Shown piece by piece: positions 5,497 through 49,423 of a stretch of 64,000 nucleotides of DNA (positions are counted from its first letter, which is position 1; every line of letters starts with the position of its first letter). The stretch is from an uncultured Gammaproteobacteria bacterium. Its GTDB lineage: Bacteria; Patescibacteriota; Microgenomatia; Levybacterales; GWA1-39-11. The notes beneath the pieces were generated by a model. That model made no database searches, was not told the DNA's origin, and saw only the letters and a list, made by a program, of their open reading frames with translations. Position numbers and translations under genes: made by a program. Location: NCBI GenBank assembly GCA_964641355.1, contig CAZXND010000001.1, positions 151,858 to 215,857 of the forward strand, in the 5' to 3' direction.

Positions 5497-6554
5497 TCAG
5501 ACATAAATTTCTTTCCGATTATCAATCTCAAAGAAAATATCAAAGCACCAACTAAAACAACAAGAAGAATTATAGCAAATAATTTACCCTTACTTGAGAG
5601 GTTTAGTGCAATAATACCCAAAACCCCTGACATAACCCAATAAAAAAACGCTATACTTCTTTGTCCAAAACCTAAAGACAACAATAAATGGTGTAGATGT
5701 CCCCTATCATGCCAGAATGGGGATTTTTTTGAAAGAGTTCTTCTTATAATTGTTGCTACTGCATCGATTGTAGGCACTCCCATCACCAAAATTGCTGTTG
5801 CAAGCTTAACCCCTGAAAGAATAGAAAGAATAGCTATTGTAAATCCTAAGATTGTAGCGCTATAACCTGGAAATATTTTGGCCGGGTGGTAATTGAAAAA
5901 AAGAAGACCAAGAGCAGCTCCAGCAACAATGAAAGACATTTCGGCCGAATGAACATTTATCTGTTCGAGGTGTTGAAAACGAGTCGATGCTATCCCAATT
6001 ACAATAGCAGATATCACCGCAATCCCAGGCATTTGACCGTCAACTCCCTTACTCCAATTAAGCATATTCATCACCCAAACGATCCAAACGACAGCAAAAA
6101 TTCCGCCCAAAAGGAGGTCAAAGTTAAAAAATCTAAAATAAAAACTGTTAAAGCTCACAATTCCTCCGAATGGATTTGTCACAAAAGGGATATACACCCC
6201 CTGAGCAACTACTAAAATAGCGCATGCAATATTGGCAAAGAATCTTAAATACGGAGACAAGTCATACTTATCATCTAACACACCTATTAATGTAACTATT
6301 GCGCCAGAAAAAAGTATAGAAACAAATATTTTATCCATCGGAATAAAAATTACAGAAGTGAAAAGAACAGCCAAGTAAATTGGCAACCCACCCATTCTTG
6401 GAATAGGTTTTGTATGAATTATTGCAGGGTGTTTATGTTTTTTTGGATCATCTACTAATTTAAATTTATAAGCTATTTTTATAACCAAAGGAAATAAGAT
6501 CATTGAAATCGAAAATGAGACAAGAAATGGAAAAATAAGGTTTGTAAATATCAT
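5493..6554 (-). CDS. Glycosyltransferase family 4 polyprenyl-phosphate sugar-1-phosphate transferase (WecA/MraY-like)
   Basis: Multi-TM protein with the DDxxD-type motif (GVLDDKYDL) and MNxxNxxDGxDG-like motif (MNMLNWSKGVDGQ). Confidence 0.7.
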   Translation of the reverse strand: MIFTNLIFPFLVSFSISMILFPLVIKIAYKFKLVDDPKKHKHPAIIHTKPIPRMGGLPIYLAVLFTSVIFIPMDKIFVSILFSGAIVTLIGVLDDKYDLSPYLRFFANIACAILVVAQGVYIPFVTNPFGGIVSFNSFYFRFFNFDLLLGGIFAVVWIVWVMNMLNWSKGVDGQMPGIAVISAIVIGIASTRFQHLEQINVHSAEMSFIVAGAALGLLFFNYHPAKIFPGYSATILGFTIAILSILSGVKLATAILVMGVPTIDAVATIIRRTLSKKSPFWHDRGHLHHLLLSLGFGQRSIAFFYWVMSGVLGIIALNLSSKGKLFAIILLVVLVGALIFSLRLIIGKKFMSE

Positions 6555-35386: not shown

Positions 35387-35470
35387 GGAGGGTTGGCCGA
35401 GTGGTTTATGGCGCTGGTCTTGAAAACCAGTGAGTGAAAGCTCTCACAGGTTCGAATCCTGTACCCTCCG
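35387..35470 (+). tRNA. tRNA-Ser (anticodon UGA), type II with long variable arm
   Basis: Acceptor GGAGGGT/ACCCTCC, anticodon loop cTTGAaa and a long variable arm gtgagtgaaagctctcac. CCA is not encoded. Confidence 0.85.
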
Positions 35471-35548
35471 CAGAGTTCTGTTATAATTTAAGCCGCAATT
35501 CATTGGAGGAGTCGGATAAGCAAATAGCTTGTGCGGCTCTCAAACAAG

Positions 35549-35637
35549 GGAGGAGTCGCATAGTTGGTCCATTGCGAGGGTTTGCTAAACCCTTGAGTCT
35601 AAATGACTCGCGCAGGTTCGAATCCTGTCTCCTCCGC
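35549..35637 (+). tRNA. tRNA-Ser (anticodon GCU), type II with long variable arm
   Basis: Acceptor GGAGGAG/CTCCTCC, anticodon loop tTGCTAa and a long variable arm. ORF 35434..35688 is a spurious overlap. Confidence 0.85.
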
Positions 35638-35729
35638 CCACAATCCCTTCTAGAAATTATTACTTTTTTGTTACCGATTTGTGGCTAAATTTAATTGCTA
35701 TATAAAGAGTCCTATGATAAACTTTTACT

Positions 35730-36038
35730 ATGGAAAACGAAGGTGCAAAAGCTACCGGTAGTTCTGTGTCGCTTAGTATTCATGATGAAGTAGTAAATTC
35801 AGGTGTTAATCTTATCCATCCAGATCGGGAATTAATCTCTTCTATAAATGGGACTCCAATGGAGACCAGAGGAGAAATAATCGAACATCCAACCCAACCC
35901 TCTAATATCATCGACTTCACCAATGCCAAAGAGGCCATGAACACTCAAGAAGGAGAAACGAAGCGATCAACAAATAGATGGAAGCGATTATGGTTTTTTA
36001 GAGAAAAAGAACAAAAGGAGAAAAAAGATGCAGCTTGA
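35730..36038 (+). CDS. Hypothetical small soluble protein, translationally coupled to the following ATPase
   Basis: 102 aa with no motifs; it overlaps the downstream gene by 11 nt. Confidence 0.35.
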   Translation: MENEGAKATGSSVSLSIHDEVVNSGVNLIHPDRELISSINGTPMETRGEIIEHPTQPSNIIDFTNAKEAMNTQEGETKRSTNRWKRLWFFREKEQKEKKDAA

Positions 36039-38457
36039 AATTTTCTCAATCGACACTATCGTAACAATTCTTTTTTCTTTGGTTCTTTCTATCGTTTTGG
36101 TATCAGCTTTAATCGCTTCTCTTGTTGGAATTTTCTATGCATGGGGTCTTTGGAGAAAATCTGAATTACGACACAAAAAATCTTTAGACTCGTCTCTTCT
36201 TGAAATAGCACTTCCACGCGATAACGAAATAAAAATAGATGCAGCAGAACAACTTTTTTCAAGCTTTGCAGCAATGAAAAGCGTTAAAGGAATTCTTGCA
36301 TTTTCAAAAGTTCCCGACAGTATTTCTTTTGAAATCGTTGCACGCCCACAAGATATTAGATTTTATGTAGGAGTTCCAAAAAATCTTCGTGACATGGTTG
36401 AAAAACAAATTCATGGATCATATCCCGACGCACAGATAAAAGAAGTTGAAGACTATAATCTTTTTTCAGATAGTGGCGAGGTCGCCTACGCAAGCTTGGG
36501 CACAAAAGCCTCCTCTTACATTCCTATAAAAACGTTCAAAGACATACCTATTGATCCGCTTTCACAAATAACGAGTGTCATGGGAAAAATGCAGGAAGGT
36601 GAAGCCGCTGCGATTCAAATAATGATCACTCCCGGAGGAGATAAGTGGAAGAAATCAGGACGAACATACATCTCAGGTGTTAAAAAAAGAGAAGCAAATC
36701 CTGAAACAGCAAAATATTCAGTCGATCAAAGAGAGCTTGAGTCAATTGAACAAAAATTACCAAAACCTGGATTTTCCACATATATAAGACTAGTAGTTGT
36801 ATCCTCTACAAAAGAGTCTGCCGAAGCACATCTTTCAAACCTGGTCAGCTCCTTCACTCAATTTTCTTCTTACAACTCATTTGTAAAAAAGAAAATAACG
36901 TTTTTTAAGGACTCATTTATGGTTGACTTTATTTATCGATACTTACCACTCAGGGATAAAGGATCAATTCTAAACTCAGAAGAATTAGCAACCATATTCC
37001 ATTTCCCAAATAAAAGCATAGATAATCCACATATTAATTGGCTATCTGCACGAGTTGCACCAGCACCTGCAACAATTCCAACTTCAGGACTTTATCTTGG
37101 AAAGAGCATTTTTAGAGGAGTTGAAAAACCAATTTATGTTGGAGAGGATGACAGGAGACGTCATATGTATATTATTGGAAAAACCGGTACAGGAAAATCA
37201 GAACTTCTTAAAAGCATGATCTTACAGGATATAAAGGCTGGTAAAGGGGTCTGTTTCATAGATCCACATGATACAATTGAACAAATTCTCCCCCTTATTC
37301 CACCCGAGCGAGCAGAAGATGTAATTCTATTTGATCCCTCAGATACAGATAGACCAATGGGTTTAAATATGCTTGAAGCAAATACTGAAGAACAAAAACA
37401 TTTTATGGTTTCATCGATTATTGGTCTTATGTATAAGCTTTATGACCCACACCAAACAGGAATTATTGGTCCAAGATTTGAACATGCAGTCCGAAACGCA
37501 ATGCTTACAGTAATGAGCGAAGAAGGAAACACTTTCGTTGAAGTTGTTAGAGCCCTAACCGACTCCGCTTTTGTACAAGAACTTTTACCCAAAGTCGATG
37601 ACCCGATCATAAGAAGATATTGGACAGATCAAATTGCTCAAACTTCTGATTTTCACAAGTCTGAAGTACTAGACTATATAGTTTCTAAATTCGGACGATT
37701 TGTTACCAACAAAATGATGAGAAATATAATAGGACAAAGCAAAAGCGCTTTTAACTTTCGTGAAATAATGGACTCAAGAAAAATTCTTCTCATTTCTCTT
37801 GCAAAAGGAAAAATTGGTGAGGAAAATTCTAGCTTTTTAGGACTTATTCTCGTCCCAAGAATTTTAATTGCCGCTATGTCCCGACAAGACATTCCCATGG
37901 AAAGGCGACAAGACTTCTATCTTTACGTTGATGAGTTTCAGAACTTTGCTACTCCGGACTTTGCCCAAATATTATCTGAGGCAAGAAAATATAGACTGAA
38001 TTTGATTGTTGCCAATCAATTTATCGGACAGATGGAGGAAGAGGTTAAAAACGCTGTTTTTGGAAATGCAGGAACAATCATGTCTTTTAGAGTCGGTGTA
38101 ACAGATGCAAACTACCTTCAACATGAATTCCAACCAACATTTTCCGAAGCGGATCTAATAAATGTTGAACGATTCCACGCTTATATGAAAACAATTGTAA
38201 GTGGAGAACCAGTACCTCCGTTTTCAATTGACTTAACTAGAAATATCGTTGAAGAGAAAAAACTTGAAAACCCAAGAGTTGCAGAACTTGTTAAAGAACT
38301 TTCAAGACTTAAATATGGAAAACCTAAAGAACAAATAGAGAATGAGATAGCAAAAAGATCTAGACTTTTTGAAGTCGAAGAAGATTATTCAAAAGACTTA
38401 CCTGAATTGGGACGCGGACCAGAGGGTGGATTTGGTGGAACAGGTGGTAGTATCTAA
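36028..38457 (+). CDS. Membrane-anchored FtsK/HerA-superfamily ATPase, VirD4/TraD/TraG-type coupling-protein-like
   Basis: 809 aa. N-terminal TM, Walker A HMYIIGKTGTGKSE (TrwB-like GxTGTGKS), Walker B LYVDEFQNF, and a downstream RKYRLNLIVANQFIGQM block resembling the conserved T4CP ...ILQ..QL motif. Gly-rich C-terminal tail. Confidence 0.5.
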   Translation: MQLEIFSIDTIVTILFSLVLSIVLVSALIASLVGIFYAWGLWRKSELRHKKSLDSSLLEIALPRDNEIKIDAAEQLFSSFAAMKSVKGILAFSKVPDSISFEIVARPQDIRFYVGVPKNLRDMVEKQIHGSYPDAQIKEVEDYNLFSDSGEVAYASLGTKASSYIPIKTFKDIPIDPLSQITSVMGKMQEGEAAAIQIMITPGGDKWKKSGRTYISGVKKREANPETAKYSVDQRELESIEQKLPKPGFSTYIRLVVVSSTKESAEAHLSNLVSSFTQFSSYNSFVKKKITFFKDSFMVDFIYRYLPLRDKGSILNSEELATIFHFPNKSIDNPHINWLSARVAPAPATIPTSGLYLGKSIFRGVEKPIYVGEDDRRRHMYIIGKTGTGKSELLKSMILQDIKAGKGVCFIDPHDTIEQILPLIPPERAEDVILFDPSDTDRPMGLNMLEANTEEQKHFMVSSIIGLMYKLYDPHQTGIIGPRFEHAVRNAMLTVMSEEGNTFVEVVRALTDSAFVQELLPKVDDPIIRRYWTDQIAQTSDFHKSEVLDYIVSKFGRFVTNKMMRNIIGQSKSAFNFREIMDSRKILLISLAKGKIGEENSSFLGLILVPRILIAAMSRQDIPMERRQDFYLYVDEFQNFATPDFAQILSEARKYRLNLIVANQFIGQMEEEVKNAVFGNAGTIMSFRVGVTDANYLQHEFQPTFSEADLINVERFHAYMKTIVSGEPVPPFSIDLTRNIVEEKKLENPRVAELVKELSRLKYGKPKEQIENEIAKRSRLFEVEEDYSKDLPELGRGPEGGFGGTGGSI

Positions 38458-38513
38458 GTAGACTTAACCTGCTCATTTAGATATAATTACAAATCTCAAA
38501 ACTAGAGTACCAA

Positions 38514-38536
38514 CTCAGTGGCGGAGCGCTACTCTT
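38514..38536 (+). other. Partial duplicate (5' half: D-arm to anticodon loop) of the downstream tRNA gene
   Basis: ctcagtggcGgagcgctactctt is 22/23 identical to nt 38582..38604 of the tRNA 36 nt downstream. The identity breaks exactly inside the anticodon loop. Confidence 0.5.
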
Positions 38537-38571
38537 TGATGATTTAATGTTTGGGAACAAATGAGAAATGC

Positions 38572-38643
38572 GCGCCTGTAGCTCAGTGGCAGAGCGCTAC
38601 TCTTATAAAGTAGATGTCCTTGGTTCGAATCCAAGCAGGCGCA
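38572..38643 (+). tRNA. tRNA with anticodon UAU (tRNA-Ile, AUA-decoding) - unusual anticodon
   Basis: Cloverleaf: acceptor GCGCCTG/CAGGCGC, D-arm GCTC-AGTGGCA-GAGC, anticodon stem CTACT/AGTAG with loop CTTATAA, T-arm CTTGG-TTCGAAT-CCAAG, discriminator A. 72 nt. CCA is not encoded. Confidence 0.75.
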
Positions 38644-38693
38644 CAACCCAAAAAATTGTCCGTCGAATCCAAGCAGATTATATAGAAACTGCC

Positions 38694-40403
38694 ATGAAGA
38701 AATTTTTTTTAAATTCTTTTATTTTTTTAAATCTTTTTTTTATAATATTCTCTGTCTCCTTAATTATTACTTCTCAAAAAACCAACGTAGTTTTAGCAGC
38801 AGATGACAAGTGCAATAATACAAAAGCTCTTGGTCTTGATGAAATTAGTACTTGCCTTGATCAACTCGCAAAAGAAAAAGAACAATCTGAAAAAGCAACC
38901 AGGCCAATCGAAGATCAACTTGATGGAATTAAAAACAGAGTTATTTTTATCGAAAAAGATCTAGTAGTTAAGGGAAAAAACATCAAAAATGGATACGAAG
39001 CTCTTGAAAAGAGAAAAGACATATTAAATAGATCCATTAGAAGATTGTACATAAATACTTCCCACGACTCACCTTTTGCGATTTTTTTGTCACTTAAATC
39101 GGCTTTTAACATAACTCAAGCGCTAGCATACGATCGTGCACAAACAAATCAAGATAAACAAATAATTACCACCATTGTTATTTCACTTAGTGATCTTGAA
39201 GAAAAGAAAAAAAATCTTGAAACAGAACAGAAAGAACTCGTTCTAGTTAAAGAAAAACTAGATAAAGTAGTCAGCGAAGCAAAAGCATATCAAGCTACTC
39301 TTTCTACTAAAATCGCACAACTTTCTGCTCAACAACAACAATTAATTGCTCAAAGACTTGGAAGTCTTAATATTCCAAGGTCGGCCGGAACTTCTGCCAG
39401 AGGATGTAGCGATGACAGAGATGTCAACCCGGGATTTTCTCCCAGAACTGCTTTCTTTACATACGGAGCACCCCACAGAAATGGTCTTAATCAATATGGT
39501 GCTTGGGGGAGAGCAAAAGCAGGACAAAATGAGGAAACGATTCTTAGTGAGTATTACCCTGGAAAAACTTTAAAAAAGGATTACGATCAAAACATTCACA
39601 TATCCACAACTACGGGATGGGGTGGAACAATTGAAGAGTACGTTAAAAGGATTTATGAAGTTCCTGATTCCTGGACTGATAATAACCTTGCCACTCTTAA
39701 AGCTCAGGCTGTTGCAGCAAGAACCTATGCTCTCAACGTCACAGATAATGGTTCCAAATCAATATGTACCAGTGAACAGTGTCAGGTTTTTAAACCAGAC
39801 CCTAAAGGAGGAAATTGGGAACAAGCAGTTAATGCAACGGCAGGATGGGTACTTATGGATGGAGGGAGCCCAGCTTTCACACAGTATGCATCGACGCATG
39901 GAGGGTATATACAGAATTTAGGGAAATTTGATGGATCAGGTGGAAATCCAGGCAGTTTTTCAGAACTTAATTCTAGAGCATATGATAAAGAATCTCCTTG
40001 GTTTTACTGTGACTGGGGTGCAAGAAGTCAGTATAACAATACGGCCTGGCTAAAACCGGATGAGGTAGCTGATATAGTAAATGTCATATTACTTGCACGC
40101 GCCGATTCAGGAACTGGAGATCATTTATATCAAACGGATAAGCCTCATCCTTATGGAGGAGAGGTTTGGAGCCCAGATAAAGTCAAATCAGAATTGAAAT
40201 CACGTGGAGTAACTCCTTATAATAATGTTTCATCTATATCAATTAGTGCCGATTTTAGCTCAGGAAAAACGAATTCAGTAAACATCTCAGGAGACAAAGG
40301 ATCAACATCTATTGATGGGAATGAGTTTAAAAATTGGTTCAATCTTCGAGCTCCTGCAAATATTCAAATAGTTGGTCCGTTGTATAATGTTGAAACAAAA
40401 TAA
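38694..40403 (+). CDS. Secreted SpoIID/LytB-domain protein with N-terminal coiled-coil region
   Basis: Signal/TM segment, a long coiled coil, then a SpoIID/LytB-like block (LKAQAVAARTYALN...CTSEQCQVFKP...AGWVLMDGG). The track ORF start at 38568 runs through the tRNA and was rejected in favour of ATG 38694. Confidence 0.6.
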   Translation: MKKFFLNSFIFLNLFFIIFSVSLIITSQKTNVVLAADDKCNNTKALGLDEISTCLDQLAKEKEQSEKATRPIEDQLDGIKNRVIFIEKDLVVKGKNIKNGYEALEKRKDILNRSIRRLYINTSHDSPFAIFLSLKSAFNITQALAYDRAQTNQDKQIITTIVISLSDLEEKKKNLETEQKELVLVKEKLDKVVSEAKAYQATLSTKIAQLSAQQQQLIAQRLGSLNIPRSAGTSARGCSDDRDVNPGFSPRTAFFTYGAPHRNGLNQYGAWGRAKAGQNEETILSEYYPGKTLKKDYDQNIHISTTTGWGGTIEEYVKRIYEVPDSWTDNNLATLKAQAVAARTYALNVTDNGSKSICTSEQCQVFKPDPKGGNWEQAVNATAGWVLMDGGSPAFTQYASTHGGYIQNLGKFDGSGGNPGSFSELNSRAYDKESPWFYCDWGARSQYNNTAWLKPDEVADIVNVILLARADSGTGDHLYQTDKPHPYGGEVWSPDKVKSELKSRGVTPYNNVSSISISADFSSGKTNSVNISGDKGSTSIDGNEFKNWFNLRAPANIQIVGPLYNVETK

Positions 40404-43170: not shown

Positions 43171-43617
43171 ATGAAAGTATTTAATAAAACCGCTCCCGCA
43201 AATTATAAAATTAAGGAGAAAGTAGAATGTGGAATCGTTCTTTTAGGATCAGAAGTCAAAGCAGTCAAGGAAGGACACTTAGATCTTTCTGGTTCTTATG
43301 TAAAAATTATAGGACTCGAGGCTTATTTATTAAATACTAAAATTTTTCCTTATAAATACGCGAGGATTGATGGTTACGATGAATCAAGAACAAGAAAATT
43401 ACTTCTTCACAAGAGAGAAATACTCACTTTAAAAAGCAGTCTTTCCCAAGGAAACTTGACTATAGTCCCAATTTCGATGTATACTATAGGGGAACTTGTG
43501 AAGCTAGAAATAGCCGTTGTCGCAGGCAAAAAGAAATTCGAAAAGAGAGAAGATATTAAAAAACGCGATATAAAACGACAGGTTGAAGAAGAAACAAAAC
43601 ATACATTAAGGGGATGA
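43171..43617 (+). CDS. smpB: SsrA-binding protein SmpB
   Basis: 148 aa with the SmpB fold signature (GIVLLGSEVKA...LLLHKREI) and a basic C-terminal tail. Confidence 0.85.
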   Translation: MKVFNKTAPANYKIKEKVECGIVLLGSEVKAVKEGHLDLSGSYVKIIGLEAYLLNTKIFPYKYARIDGYDESRTRKLLLHKREILTLKSSLSQGNLTIVPISMYTIGELVKLEIAVVAGKKKFEKREDIKKRDIKRQVEEETKHTLRG

Positions 43618-43964
43618 ATGATTCGACAAGAATTGCACCTTTACAACAGCAAGTCGACTTTGATTAACAGTCGTAAAACATAATCAAAATTAAGTGCTAA
43701 CTCTAATGTTAGACGTCCGGCTTTCGCTTACGCGTAAAGCTTAGGACCCTCATATCGATCTCTTCTCGACTTAGATAGTATGGGGAAAAACAGTCGAGAA
43801 AAGACAAATTGGGCCTGGTTTTCCCTTTTGCTCTTTAAATAGCAAACCTTGGATTTGTTGTTATGTGTTTGTTCATGAGGCAAGTCGACAAAAGAAACAA
43901 ACTAAACTTGTAGAAGTTGTGATCGCACAGTTTTTGGACGGGAGCTCAATACTCCCCATCTCCA
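43610..43964 (+). ncRNA. ssrA: tmRNA (SsrA), one-piece; predicted tag peptide (A)ANSNVRRPAFAYA
   Basis: 5' GGGGATGAATGATTCGAC resembles the tmRNA 5' end. The 3' end GGACGGGAGCTCAATACTCCCCATCTCCA forms a T-arm plus an acceptor that pairs with the 5' end, including the G3:U70 Ala identity pair. There is an in-frame tag ORF GCT AAC ... GCG TAA at 43696..43737. It sits directly downstream of smpB, and its 5' end overlaps the smpB stop. Confidence 0.75.
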
Positions 43965-43996
43965 CACTGACATTAACAAAATAGAATAGAGATTCC

Positions 43997-46195: not shown

Positions 46196-46783
46196 TCATC
46201 CGCGCGAAGAGTTATCGATATTCAGATTGTTTTTTCTACTCCAAATTGCTTCGAGTTTCTTTTCTTTGAAATTTGCATATCGAGACATTGTTAGAAATAA
46301 ATCGGAAATTCTATTTATATATTTGACTACGTCCTCATCAACTTGCTCTTTTTTAAGTAGAGAAACAATCGCGCGCTCAGCTCTTCTTGATACTGTACGA
46401 GCTTGATGCAAATACGCTCCCGTTTTCCCCCCACCGGGAAAAATGAAATTTCTAAGAGGAGGCATTTCAGCTGTCATTTGATCGATTTTTTCTTCAAAAA
46501 ATTGAGTGCGTGGTTCAAGATGACTAATTAAATCGGTATTCTCTGGATTAGCAAGGTAGGATGCGCAACAAAAAAAATCATTTTGTATAAGATTAAGAAT
46601 CTCAAGTAAATATCTTTTATAAGCTCGTGTAGGTTTTCCTATCTCTGCAATTATTACCCCAACAACCGAATTTAATTCATCAATAGTGCCATATGCATTA
46701 ACGCGGGTACTATCTTTCCAAACTCTATCACCTGTTCCAAGCGATGTTTGTCCTCTATCTCCTTTTTTTGTATAAATCGGCAT
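46196..46783 (-). CDS. PduO-type ATP:cob(I)alamin adenosyltransferase
   Basis: MPIYTKKGDRGQTSL... N-terminus typical of PduO/MMAB family. The start was trimmed to ATG 46783; the track extends to 46870. Confidence 0.75.
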   Translation of the reverse strand: MPIYTKKGDRGQTSLGTGDRVWKDSTRVNAYGTIDELNSVVGVIIAEIGKPTRAYKRYLLEILNLIQNDFFCCASYLANPENTDLISHLEPRTQFFEEKIDQMTAEMPPLRNFIFPGGGKTGAYLHQARTVSRRAERAIVSLLKKEQVDEDVVKYINRISDLFLTMSRYANFKEKKLEAIWSRKNNLNIDNSSRG

Positions 46784-46948
46784 AAAAAAACCTCTCTTCC
46801 GAGAGGTTAAAACCGTTCCTGCTCGGGATATTACTAAAGCATAGTTTTCTGACTTTAACAGTTGCGGCACAGTTATGGATTTACACCATAATTACCTATA
46901 CTTTGTTTAGAACAACTACAGCTATTTTGCGATGCTCGATTTCTTGTC

Positions 46949-49423
46949 TTAACATTCAGAGTATCCACAAGAATAGCACTTCTTACATCCTTCTTCATGA
47001 GCAAGAGTTCCTGCTCCACAAGAAGGACACATGTCAAATAGATTCGTATTATGCTCTTCTGCAGAAAGAGGTAATTGTTCAAGAACAACTGACTTATCTG
47101 AAAGAAGGCTCTGCTTATCTAAAACAGGAGATGACGCATTCACTTTCATACTTACATGCCCGTTTCCATTACCGTTTGTATGACCATTTGTTGATGGCCC
47201 ACTCTCCATATTTAATGGTGACTGTGGAGTAGAAGTATTAGCATCAATAACTCGACCATTTACTTTAAATCCAAATTCTTCAGCAAGTACTTTTGCGATT
47301 GCATCAGGTACTGACCTGACCCTGTTTTCTCCAAAACCAACAGCCCTCATCCCTCCAATTCCAGCAAGTTGAGCAACAATTTTTTTTACTTTTTCTCTTT
47401 GCGAAACAGAACTTTGAAGACGTAGAACAAGAGAAATCATTCTTCCTAATGCATCCGTCATTGCAGTAACATCGCTTCCTGATTTTCCAATCGTCACAAA
47501 AAGCTCAAAAGGCTCACTGTTTTGATCATTGTTAATAGTTATATAAGCTTCTCCAAGTGGAGTATTTGTCTTGTAAGTAAGACCGTGCATTACGGTCGGT
47601 CTCCTTACAACAGCTGGTTGGACAACTACAGGTTTTGGTTCTTCTTTTTTAGTATCTGTTCTTTCAAGAACTCCAGCACGAGATCCCTCTCTCATATAAG
47701 CAATTCCCTTAAGTCCTAACTTATAGGAAAGGTTATAAAGTTTTTTTACATCATCAATCGTATGAGTCTTCGGTGCATTTACCGTCTTTGAAATTGAAGC
47801 GTCAACGTATTGTTGAATAATTCCTTGAACTTTAACATGATCTTCAGGTGTTAAATCACCTGCAGAAACAAAATATTCAGGTCTAACTCCTCCACTTTTC
47901 ATCTCATCCTCGTGCTTTTTGTACCATTTCTCATAAAGATGATGTCTTACAATATGCTCACCTAGTCGATCTTTTCTAACAAATTCAAATTCAAAAACCG
48001 GTTCAATTCCAGATGTTGTATTGGAAAGAAGAGAAGTGGTTCCTGTTGGAGCCTGCATTAAAATTACTGAATTTCTAATTCCAAATTCTTTAATTGTCTT
48101 TTGAATATCTTCTGGAAGAGCTTGAATAAATTTTCCTTTAGGAAAAAGTTCTTTGTCAAATTTTCCGAATGATCCTTTTTCACGCGCAACTTCAACAGAC
48201 GCTCTATAGGCTTCGTCTCGAATTAATTTATAAACCTTGTCTATAAATTTCAAGGACGCAGGAGATCCGTACCTCATATGAAGTTTTATGAGTGTATCTC
48301 CAAGACCCATTGTCCCAAGACCAATTCGCCTCTCTCCTTCGTATTGCGTTTTACGAATACCCTCAAAGACATAAGGATCCATTTCAACAACATCATCTTG
48401 AAATCTAACTGCAGTTCTAACAACTTTTTTAAGAGTTTTAAAATCAAATACTCCTTTTTTGTCAATATCACTTCCTTCTACAAAAGCGGAAAGATTAATC
48501 GATCCTAAATTACATACTCCCCATGGTGGAAGACCTTCTTCTCCACATGGATTAACACAATTAATTCTGTTCCAATACCAATTGTTGTGCCATTTATTAT
48601 ATCTTTCCATAAATACAACTCCTGGCTCAGCGCTTCTCCATGCAGCCTCAGCAATTAAGTCCCAAATCTTTCTAGCTTTAACAACTTTATGAACAATTAC
48701 TTTCCCTCCATTTTTCTTCCACACATCAAGATCACCATCCCATTTCTCTTCGTACATTGGATCTTTTTTATCTGGAAAAACTAACTCCCAATCATCATCG
48801 CGCTCAACAGCTTCCATGAATTTATCACTGACACAAACAGAAAGATTAGCTCCATTAATTTTAGTTAAATCTTGTTTTACAGTAATAAAATCTTCAATAT
48901 CAGGATGCCAATCCCAAAGCATAAGCATGAGAGCACCTCTTCTTGTCCCCCCTTGCTGAATAATATCTTTTGTTGCAACTGAAAATAATTCCGCCCAATT
49001 AATCGGTCCTGATGAAAACCCATTGACCTTTTGCACTCTTGCGCCTTTTGGTCTAAGCGTTGAAAGATTTATTCCGACACCTCCACCCCTTGCCATAATC
49101 TCTACCATTTGTTTTAATGTCTCAAGAATTCCATCTCTTGAGTCTTTCGGAGAAGGAATAACAAAACAATTATAATAAGTGACCGCAAAACCAGTTCCTG
49201 CTCCTGCTAAAATTCTTCCACCTGGAATATATTTGAAATCCTTCATCGCAAAATAATACTCTTGTTCCCATTTCTTTCTATCCTCAGGCTTCTCAATTTC
49301 TGCTACTGCTTTTGCGACTCTTTTCCACATTTGTTCTGGGGTTTTTTCGGTAGGAGCACCTTTTCCGTCTTTGAGGGAATATCTATCTAAAAAAACTTTT
49401 TGCGATAAATCGTTTAGTTTCAT
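46949..49423 (-). CDS. nrdJ: Class II (adenosylcobalamin-dependent) ribonucleotide reductase NrdJ with C-terminal zinc-ribbon
   Basis: 824 aa. The N-terminus and catalytic core resemble monomeric-type class II RNR (...GGGVGINLSTLRPKGA...NPCGEEGLPPWGVCNLGSINL). C-terminal Cys cluster CPSCGAGTLAHEEGCKKCYSCGYSEC. Confidence 0.85.
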   Translation of the reverse strand: MKLNDLSQKVFLDRYSLKDGKGAPTEKTPEQMWKRVAKAVAEIEKPEDRKKWEQEYYFAMKDFKYIPGGRILAGAGTGFAVTYYNCFVIPSPKDSRDGILETLKQMVEIMARGGGVGINLSTLRPKGARVQKVNGFSSGPINWAELFSVATKDIIQQGGTRRGALMLMLWDWHPDIEDFITVKQDLTKINGANLSVCVSDKFMEAVERDDDWELVFPDKKDPMYEEKWDGDLDVWKKNGGKVIVHKVVKARKIWDLIAEAAWRSAEPGVVFMERYNKWHNNWYWNRINCVNPCGEEGLPPWGVCNLGSINLSAFVEGSDIDKKGVFDFKTLKKVVRTAVRFQDDVVEMDPYVFEGIRKTQYEGERRIGLGTMGLGDTLIKLHMRYGSPASLKFIDKVYKLIRDEAYRASVEVAREKGSFGKFDKELFPKGKFIQALPEDIQKTIKEFGIRNSVILMQAPTGTTSLLSNTTSGIEPVFEFEFVRKDRLGEHIVRHHLYEKWYKKHEDEMKSGGVRPEYFVSAGDLTPEDHVKVQGIIQQYVDASISKTVNAPKTHTIDDVKKLYNLSYKLGLKGIAYMREGSRAGVLERTDTKKEEPKPVVVQPAVVRRPTVMHGLTYKTNTPLGEAYITINNDQNSEPFELFVTIGKSGSDVTAMTDALGRMISLVLRLQSSVSQREKVKKIVAQLAGIGGMRAVGFGENRVRSVPDAIAKVLAEEFGFKVNGRVIDANTSTPQSPLNMESGPSTNGHTNGNGNGHVSMKVNASSPVLDKQSLLSDKSVVLEQLPLSAEEHNTNLFDMCPSCGAGTLAHEEGCKKCYSCGYSEC

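Follow-up and report, generated by a model that had tools for sequence, protein, structure and literature searches.

A tRNA-Ile with a UAU anticodon from a Levybacteria-like bacterium of the candidate phyla radiation, and signs of nested tRNA genes at its locus

The decoding of AUA is the classic case of bacterial dependence on an essential modification enzyme, and that enzyme, TilS, has been discussed both as a bacteria-specific drug target and as a member of the minimal gene set. Described departures from this arrangement are few: Taniguchi et al. 2013 (PMC3575796) reported nine species lacking tilS, distributed over three clades, together with a few species that possess both systems, and a review of 2026 still cites Mycoplasma mobile alone (PMC13602947). 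No paper linking lysidine or TilS with Patescibacteria, the candidate phyla radiation (CPR) or Saccharibacteria was found in the literature searched. Here we describe a tRNA gene with a TAT anticodon at positions 38572-38643 (+) of a 64,000-nucleotide stretch of contig CAZXND010000001.1 (assembly GCA_964641355.1); the whole stretch is referred to below as the window. The analysis makes it highly probable that this gene is the dedicated AUA-decoding tRNA-Ile of a Levybacteria-like CPR bacterium, and that it occupies a locus with a history of tRNA genes nested within tRNA genes.

The tRNA-Ile(UAU) gene and its family

ARAGORN called a tRNA-Ile with anticodon tat at 38572-38644 (+), one of three tRNAs in the window, and the Rfam model RF00005 matched 38572-38643 (+) from end to end (model positions 1-71 of 71) with a score of 75.1 bits (E = 1.2e-14; gathering score 29). 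Base 38643 is the discriminator, the ARAGORN end running one base further, and no CCA is encoded at the 3' end of the gene. The minimum free energy (MFE) fold of 38572-38643 is the canonical cloverleaf, consisting of a 7-bp acceptor stem (GCGCCUG/CAGGCGC), a 4-bp D stem (GCUC/GAGC), a 5-bp anticodon stem (CUACU/AGUAG) with the seven-nucleotide loop C-U-U-A-U-A-A, and a 5-bp T stem (CUUGG/CCAAG), with A73 as the discriminator. The anticodon T-A-T (U34 A35 U36; 38604-38606, +) lies within the palindromic hexamer TTATAA (38603-38608), the centre of which is the insertion point observed in relatives. The identical tRNA sequence is present in Logan assemblies of other runs (ERR7569997, SRR8893623 and SRR8893624), and this recurrence in independent assemblies excludes a single-assembly error. 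A sequence-only reading of this DNA had proposed a tRNA with a UAU anticodon at 38572-38643 and had named a tRNA caller as the check; the agreement of ARAGORN, which returned tat, with Rfam and with the cloverleaf fold bears the proposal out. That reading had also named two outcomes that would speak against it, and neither was seen: the Rfam covariance model gives the same anticodon and not another one, and a gene that scores 75.1 bits and belongs to a family with strong covariation does not look like a pseudogene.

The family was collected by scanning one GTDB genome per species with the pattern GCTACTCTYATAAAGTAGA, which describes the anticodon arm with C or T at position 34; the counts obtained in this way are lower bounds. 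Loci from these species genomes are labelled L009-L127, those from Logan L001-L003, L007 and L008, and two metagenome contigs L185 and L194. The scan yielded at least 119 loci in at least 116 species-level genomes, nearly all of them CPR, and among the matches listed position 34 was T in 119 of 119 and C in none. The hosts of the matches listed include Levybacteria, Roizmanbacteria, Gottesmanbacteria, Woesebacteria, Shapirobacteria, Chisholmbacteria, Woykebacteria, WWE3, Saccharibacteria and, within Parcubacteria, Nealsonbacteria, Staskawiczbacteria and Paceibacterota; three complete CPR chromosomes (CP179889.1, CP066693.1 and OY970314.1) are among the matches that carry the same tRNA, and so are the complete or near-complete JAHFKK010000001.1 and PLZJ01000002.1. 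ARAGORN called at least 116 tRNA-Ile(tat) genes in the scanned loci, with 94 distinct sequences, and from the alignment of these 94 sequences (A1), to which the window gene belongs, RNAalifold recovered the cloverleaf, with compensatory double changes at 10 of the 21 pairs and three broken or gapped cells in total. Such covariation argues for selection on a working tRNA and not for a pseudogene. The alignment shows, at the level of sequence comparison, that purifying selection has maintained this UAU tRNA family across the species genomes counted above. The view of the sequence-only reading that a UAU anticodon is rare and confined to a few reduced genomes thus holds for the published literature (about nine species) and fails for the CPR lineage (at least 119 loci in at least 116 species). 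In this lineage tRNA-Ile(UAU) seems to be the standard and ordinary AUA decoder, apparently one that has not yet entered the tRNA literature searched.

The isoleucine identity elements A35, U36, A37 (the t6A site), A38 and A73 are all present in the window tRNA. The identity set of E. coli IleRS, as reportedly established by Nureki and co-workers in 1994, includes these five together with C4-G69, U12-A23 and C29-G41. C4-G69 and U12-A23 are both found in the window tRNA, C4-G69 being shared by 53 of the 94 family members and so not universal; at the remaining, E. coli-specific element the window tRNA and all 94 family members have A29-U41 in place of C29-G41. A73 is present in 93 of the 94 sequences.

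The window has a GC content of 34% and encodes housekeeping functions (MetRS, GroEL, LepA, TIM, a UvrD-type helicase, MurJ, SmpB beside tmRNA, and a B12-dependent ribonucleotide reductase) as well as families typical of CPR (DUF5657, DUF5667, DUF5769, T4SS pilin, PrgI and a VirD4-like ATPase, all by Pfam), and its nearest relatives among named genomes are Levybacteria metagenome-assembled genomes (MAGs). Dozens of TPA_asm MAGs titled 'uncultured Gammaproteobacteria bacterium' carry a CPR-type tRNA-Ile(UAU) (loci L009-L127), as do one 'Pseudomonadales' and one 'Desulfotomaculum sp.' record. Many of the 'uncultured Gammaproteobacteria' MAGs are evidently CPR, to judge from VirD4-like proteins that are 62-76% identical to that of the window, and the taxonomic labels look mistaken.

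Two further observations concern the family at large. In about a third of the CPR tRNA-Ile(UAU) sequences in alignment A1 the T arm reads GGTCCGA for GGTTCGA, so that C55 replaces the usual pseudouridine-forming U; the T loop of the window tRNA is the usual TTCGAAT. The two metagenome contigs (Ga0209751_...) carry dense arrays of 31-32 tRNA genes (L185:4897-9414 and L194:106-4246), in which a tRNA-Ile(tat) and a tRNA-Ile(gat) with the same anticodon arm are accompanied by a single CAU tRNA. These arrays presumably come from large phages.

AUA decoding and the lysidine question

In 45 open reading frames (ORFs) of the window, comprising 18,679 codons, AUA makes up 29.1 per 1000 codons and 32% of the isoleucine codons, as the sequence-only reading had foreseen when it stated that AUA codons are frequent in this AT-rich genome; in-frame TGA does not occur in these ORFs. 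At AUA sites of five window genes where orthologs use codons other than AUA, the residue is isoleucine in 56%, valine in 25%, leucine in 9% and methionine in 2% of cases, and this substitution profile is unlike that at AUG sites. AUA is an isoleucine codon in the window genome, and because it is frequent and read as isoleucine, an efficient AUA decoder is required. The AUA sites, aligned with isoleucine, valine and leucine and not with methionine, also bear on the alternative that 38572-38643 is a pseudogene, has a mis-called anticodon or serves another amino acid with AUA reassigned. The concordant anticodon from ARAGORN and Rfam, the perfect cloverleaf and the covariation in the family all speak against this alternative, no point in its support was found, and we give it a negligible probability.

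A UAU tRNA can, as the sequence-only reading set out, stand beside the usual decoder or take its place, and the tRNAs with a CAU anticodon bear on this question. According to Silva et al. 2006 (PMC1635315), G3 or A3 with C70 or U70 indicates an isoleucine tRNA, and C3-G70 indicates Met or fMet. G3-C70 or A3-U70 is found in 90 of the 94 UAU tRNAs. The loci that carry the UAU gene contain 58 CAU tRNAs, of which 27 are initiators, all with C3-G70, and 31 are elongators, 30 with C3-G70 and one with U3-A70; by the same rule, the Ile2 signature is present in none of these 58 CAU tRNAs near the UAU genes. A metagenome scan was made for the same anticodon arm with any base other than T at position 34. 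Among the 120 matches listed, 115 had G34, four C34 and one A34. The G34 matches are ordinary tRNA-Ile(GAU) genes, most of which look marine, with a few CPR-like ones from groundwater. The four C34 matches comprise two Met-type tRNAs with C3-G70, one of them in an array without an Ile tRNA, and two sequences that are not tRNAs, and none is of the Ile2 type. As judged from these matches, the anticodon arm is of the Ile type, common to the GAU and UAU isoacceptors and essentially never associated with CAU. An origin of the UAU gene from tRNA-Ile2(CAU) by a C34U change, suggested by G3-C70, C4-G69 and C5-G68, was considered but is not distinguishable from an origin from tRNA-Ile(GAU): the arm is common to GAU tRNAs, and pairwise identities do not discriminate.

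Genes for TilS and IleRS were sought as well. Pfam found neither tilS nor IleRS among the 45 ORFs of at least 150 amino acids in the 64-kb window. With E. coli TilS as the query, tblastn gave no match in 0.95 Mb of related CPR DNA, nor in the 1.74 Mb fetched in total; the null result in the 0.95 Mb is a weak argument for loss, as about one copy would be expected there by chance and the DNA is centred on a single locus. No IleRS was found by tblastn with the E. coli query in the fetched loci, and the sole synthetase gene beside a tRNA-Ile(UAU), at L104:4545-6749, considered as a candidate IleRS, proved to encode ValRS. Taken together, the tRNA and protein comparisons suggest that the lineage has probably lost TilS and tRNA-Ile2(CAU), as in Mycoplasma mobile. 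The lack of tRNA-Arg(ACG), and hence of inosine decoding, that the Codetta study reported for CPR (PMC8629427) fits a general shift away from modification-dependent wobble.

The alternative to loss is that the genome retains TilS and a lysidine-modified tRNA-Ile2(CAU), with tRNA-Ile(UAU) acting as a second reader of AUA. Such redundancy is possible, since both systems are found in Lactobacillus casei, L. plantarum, Cyanothece PCC 7424 and Ferrimonas balearica (Taniguchi et al., PMC3575796), and the window tRNA keeps C4-G69 and C5-G68, which are TilS determinants of E. coli tRNA-Ile2 (PMC1635315). On the other side stand the missing Ile2 signature in all 58 CAU tRNAs of the at least 119 related loci, the absence of C34 arms from the 119 genome matches listed, their low number among the metagenome matches listed (4 of 120, none Ile2-like) and the absence of TilS from the sampled DNA; moreover, at 29 AUA per 1000 codons one efficient decoder suffices. 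C4-G69 is also an identity element for IleRS, so that its retention need not imply TilS. The tendency of CPR to shed modification-dependent decoding, exemplified by the missing tRNA-Arg(ACG) (PMC8629427), points in the same direction. On balance we regard a redundant decoder as unlikely.

tRNA genes within tRNA genes

The fragments of tRNA sequence on both sides of the window gene, which the sequence-only reading did not mention, turned out to be a more unusual feature than the UAU anticodon, and they are best understood from the relatives. Self-similar fragments were detected in the flanks of 27 of 116 loci, compared with 20 of 1135 shuffled flanks. Half-tRNA matches flank the intact gene in 20 loci, and their breakpoints cluster at positions 33-38 and 30-35: with a profile hidden Markov model of the family, 15 of 19 upstream partial matches ended at positions 33-38, whereas 11 of 15 downstream partial matches started at 30-35 and 12 of 15 reached position 73. 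Both outer halves are present in eight loci. When the insert was removed between A35 and U36, ARAGORN called five of the eight rebuilt outer genes tRNA-Ile(tat), and the rebuilt genes of L033 and L078 give a faultless cloverleaf fold. Four loci (L023, L033, L043 and L078) retain a first outer layer in perfect condition. Its two halves are complementary to one another and not to the inner gene, from which they are set apart by compensatory changes; the acceptor stems, for instance, are GGGCGUG/CACGCCC (outer) and GGGCUGA/UCAGCCC (inner) in L023, GGACCUG/CAGGUCC and GGGCGUG/CACGCCC in L078, and GCGCCCG/CGGGCGC and GGAACGG/CCGUUCC in L033. Several outer genes also have distinct anticodon stems of their own. 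Decayed outer layers are seen in L044, L091, L094, the window and the second outer layer of L023. L023 is built of three layers: the T loop of the decayed outermost one is interrupted by yet another insertion, and the tRNA of the middle one differs very little from that at the centre of L078.

Insertion splits the anticodon loop between A35 and U36, in the middle of the palindrome TTA|TAA. From left to right, each insert comprises a spacer of 11-45 nucleotides, one whole tRNA-Ile(UAU) and a second spacer of about 15-35 nucleotides; its total length is about 100-165 nucleotides, of which the tRNA takes up about 73. The inner tRNA is enclosed by inverted repeats in the spacers (19 bp in L094, 11 bp in L044 and 9 bp in L078), and the insert termini are themselves inverted, as in TGACA...TGTCA, TGGCAA...TTGCCA and GCTT...AAGC. 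These nests look like the product of serial insertion, in which the newest copy is innermost and older layers decay outward, and by analogy the window would be an old, decayed example. No description of nested tRNA genes was found in the literature searched; PMC10714607 concerns archaeal split tRNAs and CPR rRNA introns.

In the window, the putative 5'-half remnant of an older tRNA-Ile(UAU) lies at 38512-38536 (+) and corresponds to positions ~9-33, with the D arm, the 5' strand of the anticodon stem and C32-U33-U34. Within it, 38514-38536 (repeat D2) is identical at 22 of 23 positions to 38582-38604 (positions 11-33) of the functional gene, which begins 35 nucleotides downstream, and the layout is that of the intact outer halves in L023, L033, L043 and L078. 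The left spacer of the insert would be 38537-38571 (+), in which GTTTGGG is complementary to CCCAAA in the right spacer; this pairing, weak in the window, looks like what decay has left of the inverted repeats seen in the relatives. The putative 3'-half remnant at 38663-38676 (+) corresponds to positions 54-67, that is, the T loop, the 3' strand of the T stem and the beginning of the 3' acceptor strand, and TGTCC at 38653-38657 may be its variable loop. Several Logan runs contain these remnants without any difference.

Partial copies of tRNA genes are a common by-product of integrative elements, and fragments such as those in the window might have arisen by ordinary tandem duplication, or by duplication of an integrase att site, followed by decay, and not as halves split by an insertion. 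The gene next to the tRNA encodes a conjugation-type ATPase, and the near-identity of the fragments to the functional copy (22/23 and 14/14) is what a recent local duplication would give. A tandem duplication, however, yields whole copies side by side, and an integrase repeats the 3' part alone, at the distal end of an element several kb long, whereas here a 5' and a 3' half flank the gene within about 60 nucleotides. Furthermore, the halves in the relatives are mutually complementary and, with a clean joint at A35|U36, make up a valid tRNA, no integrase gene is found in the neighbourhood, and the VirD4-like gene is a stable chromosomal neighbour in at least 58 genomes. We consider duplication improbable.

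The most economical reading of the nests is a small non-autonomous cassette that carries a replacement gene and inserts into the anticodon loop. This cassette history is shown in the relatives; for the window we infer that the present gene arrived on a small non-coding cassette inserted at TTA|TAA (A35|U36) of an older tRNA-Ile(UAU), which would have destroyed the older gene while replacing its function, the halves then decaying to 38512-38536 and 38663-38676. tRNA genes of CPR are probably single-copy and essential. If this is the case, the surviving insertions would be those whose cargo matches the destroyed gene, and survival of matching cargo alone would make cargo and target always the same isoacceptor.

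Several points weigh against this interpretation of the family and of the window. No cassette-moving enzyme is found near the nests, and no integrase, transposase or homing endonuclease lies nearby; the genes next to nests encode UDP-glucose dehydrogenase, an MFS transporter, a PIN domain protein and PP2C, and one sub-threshold match near them was to the 23S rRNA intervening-sequence protein. The 5' remnant of the window is decayed, its match to family positions 9-33 by nhmmer having E = 0.0073 and its 5' acceptor strand being lost, and the 3' remnant is just a 14-nucleotide match (repeat D5), identical at 14 of 14 positions to 38625-38638 and lying 19 nucleotides downstream of the gene. The nested reading of such short, decayed remnants leans on the relatives. 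The constancy of the anticodon arm across at least 119 loci is set by the search pattern and provides no evidence, and CPR tRNA-Ile(UAU) genes with other arms exist, namely the outer genes of L033, L043, L044 and L078.

Other origins were considered and rejected. A group I intron does not account for the insert, since Rfam finds tRNA alone in the nests and yet detects the intron of L023 (51.9 bits). An assembly artefact is countered by the occurrence of nests in independent studies and with different assemblers, by unique structured spacers, and by window remnants that do not differ across Logan runs. An IS200/IS605-like insertion, or one at a restriction cut (TTA^TAA), considered from the junction sequences, gained no supporting result. 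A bulge-helix-bulge (BHB) intron or split tRNA is not suggested by the junctions, where the ends of the insert pair right up to the junction in a continuous helix without 3-nucleotide bulges, as seen by inspection with no dedicated BHB tool.

This last observation also bears on the possibility that the outer halves still work, the insert being a tRNA-containing intron from which RNase P and RNase Z release the inner tRNA, after which the outer halves are trimmed and ligated in archaeal style. The split tRNAs of Nanoarchaeum are held together by pairing of leader sequences, and the spacer helices of the nests would hold the halves together in a similar way; in addition, the first outer layer is intact in L023, L033, L043 and L078, and the initiator tRNA of L023 holds a group I intron likewise placed at A35|U36. 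Against this are the single continuous helix at the junction in place of a bulge-helix-bulge, the lack of any Rfam intron match in the nests, and the progressive outward decay (second outer layer of L023, L044, L091, L094 and the window), a pattern that dead genes, unlike spliced ones, should show. CPR are also not known to have a splicing endonuclease. Functional outer halves thus appear very improbable.

Nesting and fragments are found with other tRNA genes too. At L064:5690-5960 a tRNA-Ala(CGC) (5788-5861) lies inside a different tRNA-Ala(CGC) broken at 37|38, and the ends of this insert (CCGCGCCTGCC...GGCGGGCAGG) resemble those of the Ile insert of L043 (CCCGTCTGCC...GACGGGCAGG). Fragments also occur beside tRNA-Ala(tgc) in L097, tRNA-Cys(gca) in L064, tRNA-Phe(gaa) in L123, and Met tRNA genes; the fragment-flanked rate was 9/210 for other tRNAs compared with 13/116 for Ile(UAU). 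Directly beside tRNA genes, both the end motif NNCGGGCAGG and hairpins of the form CCTGCC...GGCAGG are seen repeatedly. In L023, a group I intron (RF00028, 51.9 bits, L023:122-363) splits the initiator tRNA-fMet(CAU) at L023:138-457 (+) at CTCA|TAA, that is, at A35|U36, the same position as in the tRNA-Ile nests. Mobile DNA is thus invading anticodon loops at A35|U36 in these genomes.

Three smaller observations were made at these loci. Three tandem 3' fragments follow the tRNA-Cys of L064, and a stray copy of the first 13 nucleotides of the L023 initiator tRNA (TGCGGGGTAGTGT) is located at L023:27-39, about 100 nucleotides upstream. Palindromic hairpins of about 16-20 nucleotides, CCTGCCTGCC..GGCAGGCAG(G), were seen at L033:2263, L064:5894 and 6759, L095:6733 and 6831, and L041:2861; five of the six lie within or adjoin tRNA remnants, and the L041 copy is about 1.5 kb from the nearest tRNA. 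These hairpins may form a small palindromic repeat family tied to CPR tRNA loci.

A candidate sigma-70-like promoter precedes the 5' remnant at 38459-38487 (+), with TAGACT, a 17-nucleotide spacer and TATAAT (38482-38487), matching the consensus at 10 of 12 positions. It is the single promoter-like site in 38380-38800, and as shuffled sequences average 1.0 such sites it is a consensus match and not proof. TATAAT boxes are found at the corresponding place, 5' of the outermost half, in L023, L078 and L094. Judged by its position 5' of the dead half, the promoter was probably that of the older outer gene before it came to serve the functional tRNA. Transcription would start after the TATAAT box and yield a leader of about 80 nucleotides, the dead 5' half included; the tRNA would then be freed by RNase P and RNase Z, and CCA would be added afterwards. 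IleRS would read A35, U36, A37, A38 and A73 together with the Ile-type acceptor (G3-C70, C4-G69). In decoding, U34 would pair directly with the third-position A of AUA, and AUG would be left to separate CAU tRNAs; direct U34-A pairing would make a lysidine-modified CAU tRNA unnecessary for AUA. Avoidance of AUG might depend on the modification state of U34, on ribosome properties as in M. mobile, or on competition from tRNA-Met. We infer these processing, charging and decoding steps from general tRNA biology and from PMC3575796.

Gene neighbourhood, significance and relation to known systems

Upstream of the tRNA lies a gene for a VirD4/TraG-like coupling ATPase of 809 amino acids (36028-38457, +; Pfam DUF87, TraG-D_C, TrwB_AAD_bind and T4SS-DNA_transf). 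Orthologs with 62-80% identity adjoin tRNA-Ile(UAU) in at least 58 loci, with a median gap of 75 nucleotides, and the tRNA is co-oriented with the VirD4-like gene in 49 of these 58 loci and opposed in nine. The opposed loci are L013, L018, L094, L010, L017, L052, L075, L079 and L084, and in L094 the outer halves are opposed as well. Opposed strands, with the halves of L094 included, argue that the whole tRNA unit was flipped or re-acquired at a fixed chromosomal position.

Downstream, a SpoIID-domain protein is encoded at 38697-40403 (+), with 38697 as its likely true start. Public gene calls (Logan) extend this ORF to an ATG at 38568, four nucleotides 5' of the tRNA, to give 611 amino acids spanning the tRNA gene; the start at 38568 is an over-extended gene call. 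Logan contigs of the host species (L001-L003, L007 and L008) repeatedly end within the tRNA or the 5' remnant, and in the genome scan MAG contigs end within tRNA-Ile(UAU) at L029/L031 and L055/L067. The contig breaks at this locus may reflect strain-level variation.

Elsewhere in the window, genes for tRNA-Ser with UGA and GCU anticodons are located at 35387-35471 and 35549-35638 (+), 78 nucleotides apart and 5' of the VirD4-like operon, and both are overlapped by a spurious ORF of 84 amino acids (35434-35688). The smpB gene (43171-43617, +) overlaps the tmRNA gene (43610-43967, +; RF00023, 128.7 bits) by eight nucleotides; ARAGORN missed the tmRNA. An AdoCbl-II riboswitch (RF01689, 53 bits) at 46834-46910 (-) lies between two ORFs, 46196-46870 (-) and 46949-49423 (-); one of the two genes that it lies between encodes a ribonucleotide reductase of class II (B12-dependent) and the other a cobalamin adenosyltransferase of the PduO type, and the riboswitch is apparently the leader of the adenosyltransferase gene. 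DnaK is situated past the left edge of the window.

A broader proposal joins the two lines of evidence: that CPR as a whole read AUA with tRNA-Ile(UAU) and dispense with lysidine, and that their tRNA genes are serially replaced by small, non-coding cassettes bounded by inverted repeats, each inserting in the middle of a resident anticodon loop with a functional copy of the same isoacceptor on board. According to this proposal, a cassette would kill the old gene, become indispensable and offer the target once more, producing Russian-doll nests of which the window gene would be the innermost survivor. We put the joint proposal forward tentatively, and think it somewhat more likely to fail in one of its parts than to hold in full. 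Should it be true, the textbook view of a near-universal bacterial TilS would fail for a very large share of bacterial diversity. If the whole radiation uses a plain UAU anticodon, the essentiality of TilS would be lineage-dependent on a large scale, the avoidance of AUG by U34 would become testable in cultivable CPR such as Saccharibacteria, and the IleRS and ribosome of CPR should carry matching adaptations. The nests, for their part, would represent a simple selfish element that gains a secure foothold by destroying an essential single-copy gene and supplying its substitute, a bacterial counterpart to archaeal split and interrupted tRNA genes, and they would explain both the assembly breaks at the locus and the ORF calls that run across the tRNA.

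Among known systems, Mycoplasma mobile (PMC3575796, PMC1635315) resembles the CPR case in that a genomic TAT anticodon reads AUA directly in an AT-rich, reduced genome with no need for lysidine. It is, however, a single species in a clade that otherwise bears tilS, and its tRNA resembles tRNA-Ile(GAU), whereas the CPR gene is conserved across the whole radiation; and in M. mobile the loss of tilS, the unmodified U34, Arg865 of IleRS and ribosomal discrimination against AUG have been shown, while the CPR case is known from sequence alone. A chromosomal tRNA-Ile(TAT) is also shared with Lactobacillus casei, L. plantarum, Cyanothece PCC 7424 and Ferrimonas balearica (PMC3575796), but these are sporadic cases with a demonstrable tilS, in contrast to the CPR loci, which show no Ile2-type CAU tRNA. 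The tilS-suppressor tRNA-Ile1 G34U of B. subtilis (Fabret 2011; Kohrer 2014, PMC3919564) established that UAU on an Ile-type body suffices for AUA without TilS, and the CPR arm is likewise common to tRNA-Ile(GAU). The B. subtilis change is a laboratory mutation in a duplicated gene; the CPR tRNA is a conserved natural isoacceptor.

The nests also have partial parallels. Group I introns occur in the anticodon loops of cyanobacterial tRNA-Leu(UAA) and tRNA-fMet and, like the CPR nests, place mobile DNA at a fixed point of the anticodon, which in L023 is A35|U36; the nests differ in that Rfam detects no group I core and the interrupted gene decays instead of being spliced. Genomic islands with tyrosine integrases land in tRNA genes, often in the anticodon loop, restore their function and leave tRNA fragments behind, so that they share with the CPR cassettes the tRNA target, the import of a tRNA sequence that preserves function and the residual fragments. 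Such islands measure kilobases, encode an integrase, duplicate the 3' part alone and rebuild a chimeric gene; the CPR insert is a tiny non-coding piece with an entire, independent tRNA gene on it, both halves of the interrupted gene stay where they were, and such inserts can nest repeatedly. Finally, archaeal split, tri-split and intron-containing tRNAs (Randau and Soll; Fujishima et al. 2009, 2010, cited in PMC10714607) share with the CPR nests a break in or near the anticodon loop and complementary sequences adjoining the halves. In the archaeal system, a BHB motif and a splicing endonuclease produce a functional tRNA from the halves, whereas the nests described here are found in bacteria, lack the BHB motif and hold a full tRNA gene between two halves that decay.

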